A DNA stretch of 64,000 bases from Bdellovibrionota bacterium (lineage in GTDB: Bacteria > Bdellovibrionota_C > UBA2361 > JAFLCA01), in NCBI GenBank assembly GCA_041907145.1, contig JAYRHW010000283.1:1304-65303 (forward strand). Direction: 5' to 3'. Both the position numbers and the translations under genes were made by a program. How positions within the stretch are numbered: position 1 is the first letter of the stretch; every line of letters begins with the position of its first letter. This document shows, piece after piece, positions 4,320-57,742 of the stretch. Under the pieces are notes generated by a model, which saw nothing but the letters and a program-made list of their open reading frames with translations, made no database searches and was not told the origin of the DNA.

Positions 4320-5930
4320 TTACTCTAACTTATCCACGGCCTTCATCAGGCCGATATTTCCTTCCTGGATAAGATCGAGAAATTGCAATCCGCGATTGGT
4401 ATACTTCTTGGCGATCGACACCACCAAGCGCAGATTCGCCTCAACTAACTCCCGCTTAGCTTCATAAGCACGCACCTCGCCGTCACGCAAAACGCGAACG
4501 CAGCGCTGGTACTCAGCAATATCCATGAGAACTTTATTCTCATGCTCATCAAGCTTCTCCTTCACGGCTCGTAACTGGTCGCCCAAATCACGCGCTTCAG
4601 TGGCCTTCATTTTCAGGCGGCGACAAGCGCGTTTAAACTCAAGCTGATTCGGCGAAACGAGCTCGGGCATAGCCTCCAGCAACTCGGCACGCGGCCTGCC
4701 CACCCCTCTCTCTACGGCACCGAGCTCTGTCATTACGGCCTTGATAGTATCATCGGTCTCCTTGATGAGGTTGCTCATCTTGGCATACTGCTTGCCGTTC
4801 AGATTAAGCTTGATGATCTTGTTCGCATTGGCATCCAAGATCCGTCGATAGCGACGCTCGACCTCGGGTAAGTTGCGCTTATGCTGGCGCCTTGCAATGC
4901 GTAAATCTTCGAAAATCCTATGCGTGTCCTTGAGCGCCTTTTTATAAAGCGAGGCTCTCTTGAGAAATTTCTTGCGCTGCTCCTCGTCTTCCTGGTTGAC
5001 CTGTGGAGTCTTATCGTCCTCCTTTTGAGCGTCGTACTCGCCTTCCTCGTCCTCAGTAGGGCGCGGCTTCTTCTGTTCCTCCTCTTCCTCCTTCTCTTCG
5101 GCCTCGGCGGAGTCCTGCTCAGCCTCTTCCTCTTCGAAGAGATCGCGCAGTCGAACTTCTTCATTCTTAACTTGATCGAACAAGTTTACCGTGTAGAGCA
5201 GTGAAAGCGGCTGGCGCAGGGTCTGGTCCGTTGCAGCCTTAAGTCCAGCCTCTATTTTCTTGGCGATTTCTACTTCACCTTCACGAGTGAGAAGGCTTAC
5301 GTTTCCCATTTCGCGCAAATACATGCGCACGGGATCTGAGCTCTTGCCAAGCGCCGATGCATCGAGCGAATCGTCACCCGCCGGCTCCGGAGCAATGCCC
5401 GGATCCATCGCCTCTTCGAAGCCCTCGCTGTTCTGGTCTACGATATCGATATCGTTTTCACCGAACATGGAGATGACGTCTTCCATTTGGTCTTCGCTGA
5501 CCAGTTCGGAATCCAGTGCTTCATTCAAGTCTTCAACAGTGAGATAGCCCTTCTCCTTGCCGAGTTCCATCAAACGCGCGACTTCGACTTCCCCAACACC
5601 GCCCTTCTCGCCCTTCTTATCGGCTCCTGCAGGGCGATCCGTTTCGCCAGCAGTTTCATCCCGCGGTTTGCGTTCGAGTACCGGACCTGCCTTGGTCATT
5701 TTTACTACTGAGCGGGGCTGCTCGTGTTCCTTGCTTCCCTCGGCCTTCACAGCTCCGCGCTTCAGGTCCGTCGGCTCCGCATCAGAATCGCTCTTCTTCT
5801 TGCGGAGAGGAAGTGCCAGGCGTTTGCCCTTGAGCTTCACGACGGCGCGCGTTTTGACAGTTGACTTGGCAGCAAGCTTGACATCGCGTGCACCAGCGTC
5901 ACGCTTCTTAATTCTCTTCTTTACTTTCAC
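4320..5930 (-). CDS. rpoD: RNA polymerase sigma-70 (RpoD), N-terminal segment (region 1.1, acidic insert, 1.2, 2.1), ending at an in-frame TAA
   Basis: Ends ...[37 protein letters not shown]. It carries a long D/E-rich insert. The reading frame continues directly into the 3741..4307 segment. Confidence 0.85.
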
Positions 5931-39287: not shown

Positions 39288-39815
39288 GGCGGACCCTTAG
39301 GTTAAGGAGGGGAAACACCGCCAACGCAGGCACGGTCATTTCCTGAAAAATCACTCTCTTAACCCTACTGCGAAAGAAGTCCGGGTGCCAGGGGTGAGTA
39401 GAGATCCGCAGGCTTTTAGAGGTTAGCCGGAAGTTTTCCGAAAACGGAACGAATTGGCGGCTCTTTTGCTTCAGATTCGCTTTTAGCAGAGCTTTCTCGG
39501 AGCGTCAGTACTTCCGCCCGGCAGACCTCCCGAGCCTCGGCCCGAAGTCTGGCAAAATCGAAGCGCGGGGTGCGGCGTCCGTAGGACACCAGATCTCTTT
39601 GACGAATAGCTTTGCGACGAGCACTCATGAGGCTTCCCCGATTTCTAGCGCCGGATAAGGCGTTTACAAGAATTATCAAAAACCGAGGAAAACCGAATAG
39701 AATGTCTGGTTAGTGAGATTACCCTACCTCGCTCTACAGACTCAAAGGTTATGAGCGAAGACTGAATACATGTTCCCTAAGACAAGTACACAAAAAACCA
39801 TGAGATTTCAGACTG

Positions 39816-42116: not shown

Positions 42117-42830
42117 CTAGGCTCCGGGGTTCTTGCGGCGATCGTTTATATCTCCGCCCTTGGGAAAGCTGGCGGCAAAAGTATCCTCCGGAACTTTGAC
42201 ATTAACGGAGAGTCCCGAAAGCAAAATCGAGGTGGTATTGCCTCCTACATCGGTCACGGCGGCGCCGCGGGGATAGAAGTCGTCGCCGACGAGAAGCTTA
42301 AAGGCTTTGAGGGAGCTGGAGGGCGTCGACTGGGCTGTCTGTCCAGGGGCAAACTCCAGGATAGTGCCAACAGCACCAGGGCAAGCTCTCAGTAAATTGA
42401 AATCTCTGCTGAGGTTCCCTAGCCCCATTAGAAAGGCTACCGGTAAGTCTGATATAACTCGGTCTTTGAAATCGTCGATAACCAGCTGATTTTCACTCTT
42501 TTGGTAGTACCACAGAGTTCCATCACGAACGAGAAACGTTTGCTCCTCCGGGGATAGATACAACCACTTCATCTTCCCAGGTCTAGTAAACCAGACGGTG
42601 CCAGAACTCATTTCAGATATTTCCAGCGCCGAAACAAAGGAGTCTTGGGAAAACGAGGCACTCAGTGAAGCGACCTTGCTGTAGGCCTCCTGGACGTGTT
42701 GAACCACCTCCCGTCCCTTAGCTACGGCAAGCGCCTTGCCGCCGGAACAGGAGAAGTCTCCTTGCTCAGCCATGAGGCTCGCGGGAGCAACGACAAATAG
42801 AAGAAATGGAAGAATTCCGACCCAACGCAT
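42117..42830 (-). CDS. lolA: outer-membrane lipoprotein carrier protein LolA
   Basis: 237 aa with a signal peptide and a LolA-like beta-barrel pattern. It conserves the ftsK-lolA neighbourhood seen in E. coli. Confidence 0.6.
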   Translation of the reverse strand: MRWVGILPFLLFVVAPASLMAEQGDFSCSGGKALAVAKGREVVQHVQEAYSKVASLSASFSQDSFVSALEISEMSSGTVWFTRPGKMKWLYLSPEEQTFLVRDGTLWYYQKSENQLVIDDFKDRVISDLPVAFLMGLGNLSRDFNLLRACPGAVGTILEFAPGQTAQSTPSSSLKAFKLLVGDDFYPRGAAVTDVGGNTTSILLSGLSVNVKVPEDTFAASFPKGGDINDRRKNPGA

Positions 42831-42972
42831 AAGGGAGGGATAATAAGCTAGTTCAGATACTTAGGCAAACTGGCTGCTTTTATCTTAATCCTATGGAGAG
42901 CTTGTCAGGCCTTCGCCTCCTACCGGTCCGCGGAATGGTTGGCGTCTCGAAGTGCCGAAGATTTTAGCGAGA

Positions 42973-43117
42973 GGATGGGTGCAGGGGCTAGGCCCTTGCC
43001 CGTCTTCGGAATCTTGGCGCAGCCAAGTATCGAAATATTAAATATTAACGGTGGGATGGGGTGCAGGGGCTAGGCCCTTGCCCGTCTTCGGAATCTTGGC
43101 GCAGCCAAGTTCCGAAA
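42973..43117. repeat. tandem direct repeat of two units of about 63 bp, each carrying two short perfect palindromes
   Basis: Unit A 42973-43035 and unit B 43053-43117 are about 95% identical: gatggg(g)tGCAGGGGCtagGCCCTTGCccgtcttcggaatCTTGGCgcaGCCAAGt..cgaaa. They are separated by an AT-rich 17-bp spacer (period about 81 bp). Confidence 0.7.
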
Positions 43118-43120
43118 GGT

Positions 43121-43173
43121 AAAATAAAGCGCGGCGGCTTCCTCGTGTCTCCACTAAGAATGCCGCCGCGCGC
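43121..43173 (-). terminator. strong terminator-like hairpin (10-bp all-GC stem) followed on the minus strand by a U-rich run
   Basis: GCGCGGCGGC (43129-43138) pairs perfectly with GCCGCCGCGC (43162-43171) over a 23-nt loop. On the minus strand it is followed by UUUAUUUU (fwd aaaataaa 43121-43128). Confidence 0.45.
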
Positions 43174-44155
43174 ATGGCAGAAAGTTAAGTCCCTCGAGAG
43201 ACGAAACTTTTGTCTTTAAGCTCCAAGCGCTCTTGCGATGGTGTCCTACTCCCGGGTTAGCGAAAGTCGGTCCTGTCTGAGAGCACTGACCGTTAGGCCA
43301 GTCGAAGCTTGGATACCTGAGTAAAGATCTCCAATGGTAGACTAATCACCCCCTGAGTTTAAACTGCAATGTTTTGAATATCGCAGCCTTTTCTGTCTGC
43401 AGCTTTCGTTCAAAGTGGCTTTGCCTGTTTTCACAGTACCTACTTTCGCAGGTTTTTCCACCAAGACCTTCCTCCCTTTCGGGATTCGCTGTCATCAGTT
43501 TTGCTAATTGCGGATACTCCTGTTTCCAGTTTCACCGTTTACAGCTTTTCTCAGATCCTCCACCGAACCCTTTCGGGTTGATAGAAGCGAGGGCTTTGCT
43601 CCATCGATACCGCGACAAAGCCGAAGCCTTGTTTCGCGCTATCTGACGATCTCCGCTGGTCGCCCAACGAAGCCCTTTCCATGAGAGTCGGTCACCCAAA
43701 ACAATGGATTCCAAGACGTCAAACTGAAAGCAAGCGAACGAAAAATCGGTTTCCCGTCTATCGCAGCCTCCCCTCATCTCCTTCACTGGCGAACCAGAGA
43801 GATCAACGATGAACAGACAAGGCCTTCACTTCTCTACGTCTCAGAGAGCCACCGCTCTCTTCACTCTGACTCTTAAGTACCTTCGCCTCGCGGCAAGATC
43901 AATAAAAAACGGGAACTGAATTGGAAATTTCTCAAGATGTTGAATCTTTCTTTCTTCGATCCATGACGAGCGAGTTATCCACAATGTTGGAAAAATTTTT
44001 ATCTTAGTGGTCAGACACATCAAACAACTTCAACACACTTGAAGGTGTTACTCAGCCCGCACCAGGCCACTATTCATACGACGTTCCATTTTTTGAGCGC
44101 TTCGGCAGACTAGCTGGCGCCCGGAGATGAGTGCTGCTCTAACCAGCTAATACCA
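43174..44155. other. about 1-kb ORF-poor non-coding segment downstream of ftsK; candidate structured ncRNA or degenerate element, identity unknown
   Basis: No ORF of 60 aa or more has a credible start or composition on either strand. The segment is AT-richer than flanking genes. It has several short GC stems closed by UUCG-type tetraloops (ccctttcggg at two places) and mutually exclusive stem options near 43590-43650. Confidence 0.3.
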
Positions 44156-46813
44156 CTAGGCCTCGGGCTCGTGGGTCGGGACGATAACCTCCCTGGGCTT
44201 TGCGCCGTCCATGGGCCCAACCAAGCCATCCTTTTCCATCATATCGATGATGCGCGCAGCACGATTGTATCCTATCCGAAACGCTCGCTGCAGCATTGAG
44301 GTGGAGGCCTGCCCCTTCTGAAGCACTAACTCTACAGCACGGTCGTAAATAGCATCGTACTCACCCTCATCGTTGAGAAGATCTTTGGTCTCGCTGTTCT
44401 CGTCCTCCTCCAGCACCTTCTTGCACATCTCAAGAATCCGCTCGTCGTATTGAGGCTTGCAGCGTTTCTTAACCGCCTCGACGACATTCTTCACCTCAGC
44501 GTCAGAAACGAAGGCACCATGAATGCGGCGAAGTGCCTCTGCGCCCGGCAACATGAACAGCATGTCGCCCCGACCGAGCAACTTATCTGCCCCCATCTGA
44601 TCGAGAATGGTCCGAGAATCAACCCGCGCCGTCACACGGAACGAAAGACGGGCTGGGAAATTGGCCTTAATGAGCCCGGTGATTACATCGACGGATGGTC
44701 TCTGCGTTGCGATAATCAGGTGAATCCCAGCAGCTCGGGCTTTCTGAGCCAGTCGAGTGATGAGCTCCTCGATATCTCTGCCAACTGTAAGCATCAGATC
44801 AGCGAGTTCGTCAATCACAATGACGATTTTCGGCAGCGGCTCAAGCACCTCGGCGACAATCGGCTCCGCCTCCTGCGAACCTTCCTCGCTCTCGTTAATC
44901 CCCGCAGGCTCGGCATTTGGCGCCGCAACGGTCCCGGATTGGACGACGTCTTCCTCTGCAAGCTGTATGACACCTTCGGCGGCGCCAACGGGGGACTTCT
45001 CCTTCTCTCCGCGCACAAGAGCATTGTAGCCATCGATATTACGCACCCCGAATCGCTGCATCATGCGATAGCGCCGATTCATTTCATTCGCCGCCCACTG
45101 CAAGACGCCCTTGGCCTGCTTTGGATCGGTCACGACCGGAACACGAAGATGCGGAATATCCTCATACACACTCAATTCCAGGATCTTCGGATCTATAAGG
45201 ATCAACCCCAGTTCCTCAGGACGAGCGCGATACAACAAGCTCACGAGAAGCGCGTTGATACAAACGGACTTGCCGGTGCCGGTCGCGCCGGCCATGAGTA
45301 GATGCGGCATAGTAGCGATGTCAGCGACCACTGGATCGCCGTACGTATCCTTGCCGACGGGAACGGTTAATATCGACTCGGCGTTCACAAACGCCTCGCT
45401 CTCCAAGACATCACGGAGTCGAACTATATCGCGATGCTTGTTGGGTACCTCGATACCCACCGTTCCCCGTTTAGGGATCGGGGCGATAATTCGGAGCGAG
45501 CTTGCGCGCAAACTCATGGCCAAATCATCTTGCAACGCTGCAATTTTCCCGACTTTCACCCCAGGAGCGGGCTCGAACTCGAATAGGGTAATGACCGGAC
45601 CTGGATGAACGTGGGTAACTTTGCCAAAAATTCCAAAATCTTTGAGCTTATTCTCGATTTGGCGCGACTTATCCCGCAATTCATCGTCATTCTCGCCGCC
45701 GACGCTCGGCTCCCCAGGACTCAACAAGCTAACATCGGGCAACTCGTAATCTGGAAAAAGCTTCGGCACATAGACCTCCCGCTCCTCCTCTTCCTTTTCC
45801 TTGCGGCGCTTACGAGCCGCCTGCGCTGCCTTGGCTCGCTCCTCGGCGTCCCGGCGCTTTACTACAACACGGGAGTAGTCCTCTCCGAGATCTTCGGCGG
45901 GAGAATCATCGTCAAGCTCCGATAGATCTTGAGTGCTCGGGGTAGGATCATCGTCATCATCCGACAAGGTCTCAACCTGTTCATCAAGAGCAGTGCTGTT
46001 CTTGCGCAAGCGAGGACGCGGCAGCTTCCATTCCCTCTCCTCCTCATCCGGTGAGGATTTCGAAGTCTTGGAGCCCTGAGTTGAAGACTTTTGCTGCGGC
46101 AGTTGTTCTAATGAATGGAGAAAGAAAACCGCTGCTCGCCGGGCGGTCCACACCGCTAGGCGGGGAAGTCCAATGAAGAGCGCATATAACGTGGCGCGAG
46201 AAAATCGCTGGAACCCCTCGAATAAGCTCGCAACGGACTGCCGCGTTGCGATCGCAAAGCACAAAACGAATAATGCTCCGGTAATCAGGCTGGCTCCGGC
46301 CGTGCTAAAAAGTCGAACGAGTGGTCGAGCAATCAGCCCGCCGACGCTGCCCCCGCCCGAAACTCCCCAAAAAACGGCTGCTAGCGCACACGAGAAAATC
46401 AGAATACCCAGCAAGCCACACAACATCAGCAGTTTGGGCGTTTTGCCGTAATCTTCAAGTAGATCTTCGGTATTCCAAAAATATCGGGACAGGATGAGTG
46501 CCCAGGCCACGGGTACGAACGCGCACCAACCCATGAACCCGGACAGCATCGTTCCCACGAAATGCCCAACTGGTCCGAATGGGTTTTGCAACAGTCTTAC
46601 ATCTGACACATCGAGACCGAAGAGCTGCCCACGCTCGGCCTGGAAGGATAGGAAGCTCACGAGAATGAAAACTGAAAAGGCAAAAAAGACGACGGCGAGA
46701 GCCTCATTAGCCCACTCTATCGATGCGGAGAAATTACGCCCCTTAGCGGAAGTGCCGCCTGACTTTTTACGCGGGAGCCCGCGACGTTTCGTGGCAGTGT
46801 TTGTCATGCCCAT
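44156..46813 (-). CDS. ftsK: DNA translocase FtsK
   Basis: 885 aa with N-terminal TM segments, a Pro/acidic linker, a RecA-like motor (LLMAGATGTGKS) and a C-terminal gamma/KOPS-binding domain (QRAFRIGYNRAARIIDMME). Confidence 0.9.
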   Translation of the reverse strand: MGMTNTATKRRGLPRKKSGGTSAKGRNFSASIEWANEALAVVFFAFSVFILVSFLSFQAERGQLFGLDVSDVRLLQNPFGPVGHFVGTMLSGFMGWCAFVPVAWALILSRYFWNTEDLLEDYGKTPKLLMLCGLLGILIFSCALAAVFWGVSGGGSVGGLIARPLVRLFSTAGASLITGALFVLCFAIATRQSVASLFEGFQRFSRATLYALFIGLPRLAVWTARRAAVFFLHSLEQLPQQKSSTQGSKTSKSSPDEEEREWKLPRPRLRKNSTALDEQVETLSDDDDDPTPSTQDLSELDDDSPAEDLGEDYSRVVVKRRDAEERAKAAQAARKRRKEKEEEEREVYVPKLFPDYELPDVSLLSPGEPSVGGENDDELRDKSRQIENKLKDFGIFGKVTHVHPGPVITLFEFEPAPGVKVGKIAALQDDLAMSLRASSLRIIAPIPKRGTVGIEVPNKHRDIVRLRDVLESEAFVNAESILTVPVGKDTYGDPVVADIATMPHLLMAGATGTGKSVCINALLVSLLYRARPEELGLILIDPKILELSVYEDIPHLRVPVVTDPKQAKGVLQWAANEMNRRYRMMQRFGVRNIDGYNALVRGEKEKSPVGAAEGVIQLAEEDVVQSGTVAAPNAEPAGINESEEGSQEAEPIVAEVLEPLPKIVIVIDELADLMLTVGRDIEELITRLAQKARAAGIHLIIATQRPSVDVITGLIKANFPARLSFRVTARVDSRTILDQMGADKLLGRGDMLFMLPGAEALRRIHGAFVSDAEVKNVVEAVKKRCKPQYDERILEMCKKVLEEDENSETKDLLNDEGEYDAIYDRAVELVLQKGQASTSMLQRAFRIGYNRAARIIDMMEKDGLVGPMDGAKPREVIVPTHEPEA

Positions 46814-56801: not shown

Positions 56802-57727
56802 CAGGCCACTCTGCCCTTTACCGCAAACAGCCCCTGCGGACGAATGAGCAGAACGAGCAATATGATGACAAAGGCAAACGCATCCTTGTACCCAGCTGGA
56901 ATACTGTACGAGCCGAAATCGAGCCCAATACTCAGGTTTTCGACTAGTCCCAAAAGGTAGGACCCCAGAACCGTTCCCCAAATATTTCCGAGTCCGCCAA
57001 GAATCATGGCGGCAAAAGCCTTAATGGTATAGGCGTTGCCCATGGTCGGCTGCAAGTTGGTTTCATAACCGACCAGCACCCCGGCATAGGCTGCAAGAAC
57101 GCAGCCCACGACGAAGCATATATATTGCGCTCGCTGACTGCTGAGGCCCAAGGACTCGGCGCCCGATGCGAACTCCGAAACTGCCCGAACCCTCCGGCCA
57201 AGAGACGTCGAATGTATGACAAGCGCCAGGAATGACAACAACAACAATGCGCTGGCAATGATAACGATCTGAACCGGGGTGATATAAACTCCGGCGACTT
57301 CATAGCTCGTTATTTCCATCCCAACACTAAGCGATTTGACATTCACGCCGAATGCCATAGAAATGCTCGATTCCAGAATGATGGAGAGGGCCAAGGTGGT
57401 CACGAAAGCCAGGAAAAAACTATAACGAGAAAAAGGAAGAATGAATAATTTCAGGCTTCCGACTGCCAGCACTATCGTCCCACCGATGGTGATGAGCGCG
57501 GAGCTTATTAATCCCAAACCGCGATCAATGGCCGCCCAATAGAAGAGATACGCGCCCACCATCATCAAATGACCGTGCGCGAAGTTGAGAATGCGCAACA
57601 ATCCGTATGTAAGAGAGAGGCCCGCGCTTGCTAGCGCATAAATGCTGCCTGCAATGAGCGCATTTACCAGAAGCTGGGGCAAAATCTCCATGCCGCAAAT
57701 TGTAGTGAAGGAACCGGGCTCTGGCAA
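56801..57727 (-). CDS. ABC transporter permease (LivH-like)
   Basis: 308 aa HAAT-family permease with about 8 TM helices. Confidence 0.8.
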   Translation of the reverse strand: MPEPGSFTTICGMEILPQLLVNALIAGSIYALASAGLSLTYGLLRILNFAHGHLMMVGAYLFYWAAIDRGLGLISSALITIGGTIVLAVGSLKLFILPFSRYSFFLAFVTTLALSIILESSISMAFGVNVKSLSVGMEITSYEVAGVYITPVQIVIIASALLLLSFLALVIHSTSLGRRVRAVSEFASGAESLGLSSQRAQYICFVVGCVLAAYAGVLVGYETNLQPTMGNAYTIKAFAAMILGGLGNIWGTVLGSYLLGLVENLSIGLDFGSYSIPAGYKDAFAFVIILLVLLIRPQGLFAVKGRVA

Positions 57728-57742
57728 GTTCTGGAGAGAACT

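Follow-up and report, generated by a model that had tools for sequence, protein, structure and literature searches.

An apparently undescribed, lineage-restricted large structured RNA between ftsK and lolA in uncultured Bdellovibrionota

To our knowledge, bacterial noncoding RNAs (ncRNAs) longer than 500 nt and with ribozyme-like complexity are very rare, the list comprising the rRNAs, group II introns, OLE, GOLLD, ROOL and a few others, and all such large RNAs that we know of have proved to be either ribozymes or unusual assemblies. OLE RNA (Rfam RF01071) is about 610 nt long and belongs to Bacillota, and the usual context of GOLLD and ROOL is a prophage or a position beside tRNA genes. Here, we describe an element of about 750 nt in the spacer between ftsK and lolA, on the minus strand of a 64-kb stretch of DNA from a Bdellovibrionota bacterium (hereafter the window, meaning the whole stretch analysed). 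It is a real, apparently undescribed and lineage-restricted large "ornate" ncRNA, and we classify it as a new family within this loosely defined kind. Among the described examples, GOLLD (~800 nt) and ROOL (~580 nt) are ornate RNAs that form RNA-only homo-oligomeric cages, and OLE, GOLLD and ROOL are all found in higher-order complexes or RNA-only homo-oligomers (PMC12286853).

The element resembles OLE in being large, chromosomal and single-copy, with many conserved helices, invariant junctions and a function that is not evident from sequence; like OLE, it would also be a separate stable RNA encoded among housekeeping genes, as far as its sequence suggests. Unlike OLE, to which it has no sequence or structure match, it belongs to Bdellovibrionota_B rather than Bacillota, is longer (~750 nt), and has ftsK and lolA as its neighbours, with no adjacent gene for the OLE-associated protein (oapA). 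It falls into the size class of GOLLD and ROOL and resembles them in how densely helices and GNRA tetraloops are packed, in its A-rich junctions and, by eye, in a loop-E-like signature. It differs from both in its strict chromosomal synteny and in lacking a covariance model (CM) match, a tRNA anywhere in the 64 kb and any similarity to sequences of phages or viruses. Its structural complexity, its richness in tetraloops and the long-range helices that close multi-helix junctions also recall RNase P RNA and group II introns. However, it is twice as long as RNase P RNA, and it has no GUGYG 5' end, domain V, intron-encoded protein, insertion into a host gene or Rfam intron match, and is single-copy, where group II introns are often multi-copy.

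We read positions 43121–43867 (minus strand) as a functional structured ncRNA gene, the product of which would be a stable RNA with a structural or catalytic role in trans, transcribed from a terminated unit of its own, and assign this reading a probability of roughly 0.78. By analogy with the large RNAs above, we also incline, by somewhat better than even odds, to regard it as a new giant "ornate" RNA class confined to the uncultured Bdellovibrionota_B/UBA2361 lineage, which might serve in catalysis, in a ribonucleoprotein (RNP) or as an RNA-only multimer.

Conservation, synteny and noncoding nature of the spacer element

The spacer between ftsK and lolA measures 1,325 nt (42831–44155) and its flanking genes were confirmed by Pfam, in agreement with the gene-free island of about 1.3 kb described in an initial annotation made from the sequence by eye. 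It is by a wide margin the largest gene-free gap in the window, the rest of which is dense with genes on the minus strand; the ftsK-lolA spacer of E. coli K-12 is 158 nt long. We compared it with the spacers of two relatives, both reached via LolA homologues, namely L002 (a contig of GCA_017302875.1) and L006 (a contig of JGI metagenome 3300045389). The first of these genomes is placed by GTDB in p__Bdellovibrionota_B; c__UBA2361 (PMC8103865). Their LolA proteins are only 56% identical to that of the window, and the gene order is the same in all three (ftsK, gap, lolA, rimO and glycosyltransferase), with gene-free spacers of 1,160 nt in L002 and 1,213 nt in L006. This comparison, which the initial annotation had proposed, found about 750 nt kept at the corresponding position in both of these distant relatives, the conserved block of the three-spacer alignment spanning ~750–790 nt. 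The core of the block, bounded by the first helix with covariation support and the far end of the U-tract, and its most conserved part are as follows.

43121–43867, minus strand: core structured RNA of ~747 nt (L002 7142–7881, L006 4316–5059)
43354–43557, minus strand: central, most conserved domain (92% mean column identity), a multi-branched junction with five GAAA/GAGA tetraloop hairpins

Invariant runs of up to 26 nt occur in the core alignment (e.g., CTGAGAAAAGCTGTAAACGGTGAAAC), and conservation peaks at 43494–43543, where 92% of columns are invariant. At the DNA level, the RNA core is 73–78% identical, compared with 74–77% for the FtsK motor domain, which is the most conserved part of ftsK; identity is 67–71% in rimO and 57–60% in lolA, and third codon positions are saturated at 34–47%. 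Past the U-tract, the proportion of invariant columns drops from 82% to 24% and then to 0–8%. On the ftsK side, conservation fades more gradually.

The conserved block is noncoding. Each of the six frames is interrupted by stop codons, and none stays open across all three sequences. The initial annotation had stated that the spacer holds no protein-like open reading frame (ORF) of at least 60 aa; it does hold three ORFs of that size (90, 84 and 60 aa), but they have no Pfam match and their frames are interrupted or unconserved in the relatives. Furthermore, a concatenated six-frame pseudo-protein of 1,261 aa, designed to catch spuriously called ORFs on homologous loci, had no match among 5.8 billion proteins. 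A decayed protein gene or a set of small ORFs was rejected on these grounds, and the alignment to a decayed protein gene that had been named in advance as contrary evidence was not found. The spacer is AT-richer than its neighbours, as first noted, but only modestly so (GC 0.44–0.53 versus 0.53–0.59).

The element is also absent from Rfam. We searched the 64-kb window with Rfam 15 (4,227 CMs, including OLE, GOLLD, ROOL, raiA, HEARO, RNase P, tmRNA, SRP, 6S, group I and II introns and riboswitches) and obtained no match at the gathering thresholds. At E ≤ 10, queries of 2 kb and of 771 nt returned noise only (≤17.3 bits against thresholds of 40–155, with E values of 2.5 or worse), and the L002 and L006 loci gave no match at E ≤ 5. 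ARAGORN predicted 0 tRNA or tmRNA genes in the window. The tmRNA, RNase P, SRP, 6S and tRNA signatures that could not be recognised by eye at the outset are thus equally missing from the cmscan and ARAGORN results. Short strings with a by-eye likeness to RNase P RNA (e.g., AACCCGGG-GUAGG) were rejected, as cmscan at E ≤ 10 on the 771 nt was negative. In the literature, we found no description of such an RNA in Bdellovibrionota, in Oligoflexia or at the ftsK-lolA junction.

Three distinct copies were recovered (window, L002 and L006), a further locus, L007, being identical to L006. The RNA is single-copy in the window and has one real match among GTDB species representatives. A CM of the central domain (R1) scored 243–248 bits on the three loci and had no other match in the fetched loci, and a search of all fetched loci with nhmmer and the CM returned nothing beyond the three known copies. 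A 17-mer searched against genome contigs hit 84 loci, where we estimate that about 70 chance matches are expected; only L015, which lies on the same contig as L002, was confirmed by homology search. No further copy was found in metagenome contigs using a 26-nt pattern and alignment of a back-translated pseudo-peptide, in viral contigs (IMG/VR) using three conserved blocks, or in plasmid and phage collections using blastn. A LolA query against the genome contig collection found no relatives, and the Logan contigs that carry LolA relatives (P0002 and P0005) end ~140–235 nt upstream of lolA, short of the element.

Two outgroup loci have ftsK next to lolA without the element, namely L094 (a metagenome-assembled genome (MAG) labelled SAR324), with a spacer of 130 nt, and L108 (a JGI contig), with a spacer of 405 nt and an FtsK C-terminus 76% identical to that of the window. 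In further relatives, lolA lies beside other genes. Short spacers without a homologous segment, which had been named as evidence against an RNA gene, therefore do occur, but in outgroups only. A single sub-lineage seems to have invented or acquired the RNA, which has been single-copy and syntenic since.

Consensus fold and strand

RNAalifold applied to the three sequences gave a consensus structure of 253 pairs (−259 kcal/mol), 45 of which carry compensatory double substitutions. We then counted pairs independently on 248 of them, forming 29 helices, after one spurious terminal helix had been dropped. Standard pairs occupied 94.9% of the cells, compared with 89.7 ± 0.6% when partners were shuffled and 38–47% when partners were slid by 1–3 columns. 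Likewise, 47 of the 248 pairs were changed on both sides, versus 19.7 ± 3.2 with shuffled partners (none of 500 shuffles reached 47) and 5–12 with slid partners. Compensatory substitutions and a lack of conserved coding potential, the generic marks of a structured ncRNA, are thus both found in these three sequences. The covariation lies mostly in peripheral hairpins (e.g., helices 9, 12, 23 and 24) and in the terminator stem. The helices of the central junction are invariant and hence without covariation support, and in the model they are plausible.

G·U pairing and folding energy both place the RNA on the minus strand. With 108 G·U cells in the fold, canonical cells amount to 94.9% on the minus strand versus 81.8% on the plus strand. 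The minimum free energy is −287.7 kcal/mol (z −5.7) on the minus strand and −226.9 kcal/mol (z −3.4) on the plus strand, a difference of 61 kcal/mol. The idea of a minus-strand structured RNA ending at a GC hairpin, put forward in the initial annotation, is therefore supported by conservation, covariation, G·U content and energy, and the sharp drop in conservation at the U-tract.

The whole fold has a multi-domain architecture of 28 helices, with a 5'/central super-domain followed by a 3' domain. The consensus model predicts the following elements, from the 5' to the 3' end of the RNA.

43866–43858 with 43327–43319, minus strand: long-range helix closing the 5' arm and the central multi-branched super-domain
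43318–43218, minus strand: 3' domain
43214–43176, minus strand: hairpin
43129–43171, minus strand: extended hairpin with a GAGA loop and 18 predicted pairs, which together with the following UUUAUUUU at 43121–43128 forms the intrinsic terminator

The terminator (arms 43129–43143 and 43157–43171, U-tract 43121–43128) is present in all three sequences; two pairs of its outer stem covary from G-C to A-U, and its inner part is invariant. A GC-rich stem-loop with a U-tract, conserved in the relatives, is what defines a rho-independent terminator, and the GC hairpin with a minus-strand U-run first noticed at 43121–43173 is real. A simple terminator scan missed 43121–43171, the apical part of which is beyond the 8-nt loop limit of that scan.

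The fold contains eight GNRA tetraloops (GUGA, GCGA, five GAAA and GAGA), two UUCG loops and one UAAC loop. Hairpin loops are either conserved or swapped within their tetraloop class, and the junctions are A-rich and invariant. Some details differ from what had been seen by eye. Both copies of the sequence initially taken for a UUCG-type hairpin, CCCTTTCGGG, are present (43474–43483 and 43568–43577), but on the minus strand their loops are GAAA and thus of the GNRA type; the true UUCG loops are at 43793–43790 and 43625–43622. As for the competing stems suggested around 43590–43650, cgcgacaaagcc/ggcttgtttcgcg belongs to the consensus structure as the hairpin 43648–43602, and ggctttg/caaagcc is absent from it. 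To the eye, GAA (43533–43531) opposite AGUA (43518–43515) resembles a loop-E/sarcin-ricin motif.

Taken together, purifying selection over ~750 nt, compensatory stems, invariant junctions and the many GNRA loops argue for a trans-acting RNA that works through its fold. GNRA tetraloops are typical mediators of tertiary contacts. By analogy with other large RNAs, the RNA would act via its three-dimensional structure and could serve as a ribozyme, as the scaffold of an RNP or as an assembly made of RNA alone. We do not think that it is a base-pairing regulator or a cis-acting leader of lolA.

Transcription and alternative readings

Transcription of the RNA would run in the direction of ftsK and lolA, probably from a weak promoter of its own (TTGATC-17-TACTTA), and additional transcripts may arise by read-through from ftsK. 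It would halt at the strong intrinsic terminator, and lolA would then be expressed from a separate promoter downstream. The genes and putative signals concerned are listed below.

44156–46813, minus strand: ftsK, the upstream flank (885-aa ORF; Pfam FtsK_4TM, FtsK_alpha, FtsK_SpoIIIE and FtsK_gamma)
43868–44155, minus strand: ftsK-proximal spacer, without a terminator after the ftsK stop codon; blocks at ~43965–44090 are partly conserved
43874–43902, minus strand: putative RNA promoter by sequence match, TTGATC (43902–43897), a 17-nt spacer and TACTTA (43879–43874)
42840–42868, minus strand: sigma-70-type promoter of lolA, TTGCCT-17-TATTAT, called in the window, L002 and L006, the same sequence being seen in L098 and L107
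42117–42830, minus strand: lolA, the downstream flank (237-aa ORF; Pfam LolA, 70 bits)

In the three loci, the putative RNA promoter consists of TTGATC or TTGAAT, 17 nt and an invariant GGTACTTA, and transcription would start at about 43866–43868, just before helix 1. The ftsK-proximal stretch of ~290 nt was excluded from the RNA because its consensus fold is weak (−17 kcal/mol, with many broken pairs). It has 30–44% invariant columns, versus 10–14% just past the ftsK stop codon, and we treat it as regulatory or spacer DNA.

Several points weigh against an independent RNA gene. The −10 element TACTTA is poor, and a consensus promoter scan did not call it. In none of the three loci was a terminator found between the ftsK stop codon and the element, an arrangement that would allow read-through from ftsK or even an origin solely as part of the ftsK transcript. 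Expression, the 5' end and stability are predictions from sequence, and the central helices with the highest conservation show no variation and are hence unproven parts of the model. With only three sequences, the covariation counts carry no phylogeny-aware significance. The gene neighbourhood offers no pointer to function. Finally, the element has a very narrow distribution and the nearest outgroups lack it, so that it is possibly dispensable or of selfish origin.

The alternative that fares best, although we consider it unlikely, is that the element is a structured 3' untranslated region (3'UTR) of ftsK. It would then have no promoter of its own, would be made by read-through from ftsK, and would stabilise or terminate the ftsK mRNA or be processed out as a 3'UTR-derived RNA. 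The element indeed shares its strand with ftsK, the three loci have no terminator-like site between the stop codon and the element, the −10 of the putative RNA promoter is weak, and the terminator of the element would double as that of ftsK. It thus resembles 3'UTR-derived bacterial small RNAs, which lie directly downstream of a coding sequence on the same strand and share a terminator with that gene. Such RNAs are 50–200 nt long and act by short seed pairing; the present element differs from them in its length (~750 nt), in being conserved across structured domains and in having no obvious conserved seed. Moreover, ~290 nt of poorly conserved, unstructured spacer separate the ftsK stop codon from the core, and TTGAnn-17-TACTTA is conserved just upstream of the first helix. 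Outgroups express ftsK without the element, and mRNA stabilisation needs far less than a fold with 28 helices and invariant junctions over 750 nt. In any case, an origin within the ftsK 3'UTR is a question of biogenesis and is compatible with a function in trans.

Much less probable is a giant cis-regulatory leader of the lolA-rimO operon, similar to a riboswitch or attenuator, in which a conditional terminator would gate read-through. Such a leader would fit an element that lies upstream of lolA, on the same strand and with a terminator at its end, and a lolA gene without a Shine-Dalgarno sequence. However, every relative examined has a conserved TTGCCT-17-TATTAT between the terminator and lolA. 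The −10 of this promoter (TATTAT) ends 9 nt before the ATG, its region (window 42828–42868, minus strand) matches L002 7963–8003 and L006 5168–5208, and the relatives without the element retain the same region. With a conserved promoter downstream of the terminator, lolA forms a transcription unit of its own, of which the RNA is not the leader. The distance and sequence between the terminator and lolA are also free to vary, with inserts of ~110 to 290 nt and a tandem repeat specific to the window. Nor does the consensus fold offer a conserved alternative, anti-terminator pairing, as expected of a riboswitch or attenuating leader; the terminator stem is among the best-conserved helices.

Least probable of all is a remnant or domesticated form of some mobile or selfish RNA, be it a miniature inverted-repeat transposable element (MITE), a group II intron lacking an ORF or an ornate RNA carried by a phage, in an insertion-prone spacer, for which the differing spacer inserts of the lineages (an inverted-repeat element in L108, the tandem repeats of the window and a sequence resembling repetitive extragenic palindromes (REP) in L102) and the patchy and narrow distribution can be cited, but which is at odds with a single-copy, strictly syntenic element despite saturated synonymous sites, with the lack of terminal repeats, of reverse transcriptase, intron-encoded protein or transposase ORFs, of Rfam intron or ribozyme matches, of anything similar in phage, plasmid and viral collections and of a nearby tRNA, and with purifying selection and compensatory changes, which denote a present function.

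If the element is indeed a trans-acting ncRNA, it adds one more entry to a very short list of bacterial ncRNAs of more than 500 nt with ribozyme-grade complexity. A well-delimited RNA of 750 nt would offer a fresh target for cryo-EM and for ribozyme hunting, and, coming from an uncultured, little-known branch with predatory bacteria among its relatives, it would mark a lineage-specific RNA biology. It also indicates that large RNAs missing from Rfam can still be discovered in MAGs by comparison of the spacers that separate conserved housekeeping genes. Its importance is limited by the three genomes in which it has been seen so far and by the lack of a functional lead, and we infer its boundaries and mode of action from three sequences.

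Repeats, a DnaA box and minor observations

Between the terminator of the RNA and the lolA promoter, and outside the conserved RNA, the window contains a tandem repeat.

42973–43126, strand not assigned: 82-nt tandem repeat (period 82), 1.9 copies, 91% matches

Each 82-nt unit contains two palindromes (GGGGCTAGGCCC-like and CTTGGCGCAGCCAAG), so the twin-palindrome repeat described in the initial annotation is real; its suggested place within the lolA promoter is not, as the repeats lie upstream of that promoter. The repeat is specific to the window, being absent from L002 and L006, and has no further copy in the window. Upstream of lolA, L102 has a similar GGCTGCGCCAA-ATTCCGA segment, and many Logan contigs of the L102 relative end at one shared point ~140 nt upstream of lolA. 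This segment and the shared break point suggest a genome-wide REP/MITE-like repeat.

Within the ftsK-proximal stretch, a perfect DnaA-box consensus (TTATCCACA) can be read at 43975–43983 on the plus strand, and the aligned positions of L002 and L006 carry one-mismatch versions. A replication origin at this site was rejected, since the cumulative GC skew runs monotonically through this part of the window and the relatives have no perfect copy of the box. The box might be a DnaA-titrating or regulatory site, or have arisen by chance.

A possible pairing between the RNA and the start of lolA was likewise discarded. Eight nucleotides of the RNA (AAGGGAGG, 43478–43471) can pair with positions −9 to −2 of lolA (CCTCCCTT, 42839–42832), but the match is partial in L002 (GGGAC/GTCCCT) and absent in L006 and is probably due to chance. 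The lolA gene has no Shine-Dalgarno sequence, and under lenient settings a Shine-Dalgarno-like motif was seen in ~22 of the 48 genes of the window. The position of the promoter and the start codon suggests that the lolA mRNA is leaderless or nearly so.

In the spacer of L108 (1219–1623), A-runs border a perfect inverted repeat of 14 nt (GGTAACTATTCACC ... GGTGAATAGTTAC), an arrangement with a MITE-like look. After the ftsK-lolA spacer, the window's largest stretches free of long ORFs are 56982–57742 (762 nt) and 39288–39815 (529 nt). The latter corresponds to the position of a small conserved ORF of 64–71 aa in relatives (e.g., L002 11219–11431). In L108, a second gene-free gap of ~1.09 kb (4604–5691) lies between the glycosyltransferase and transaldolase genes, where other relatives have a 64–71-aa ORF.

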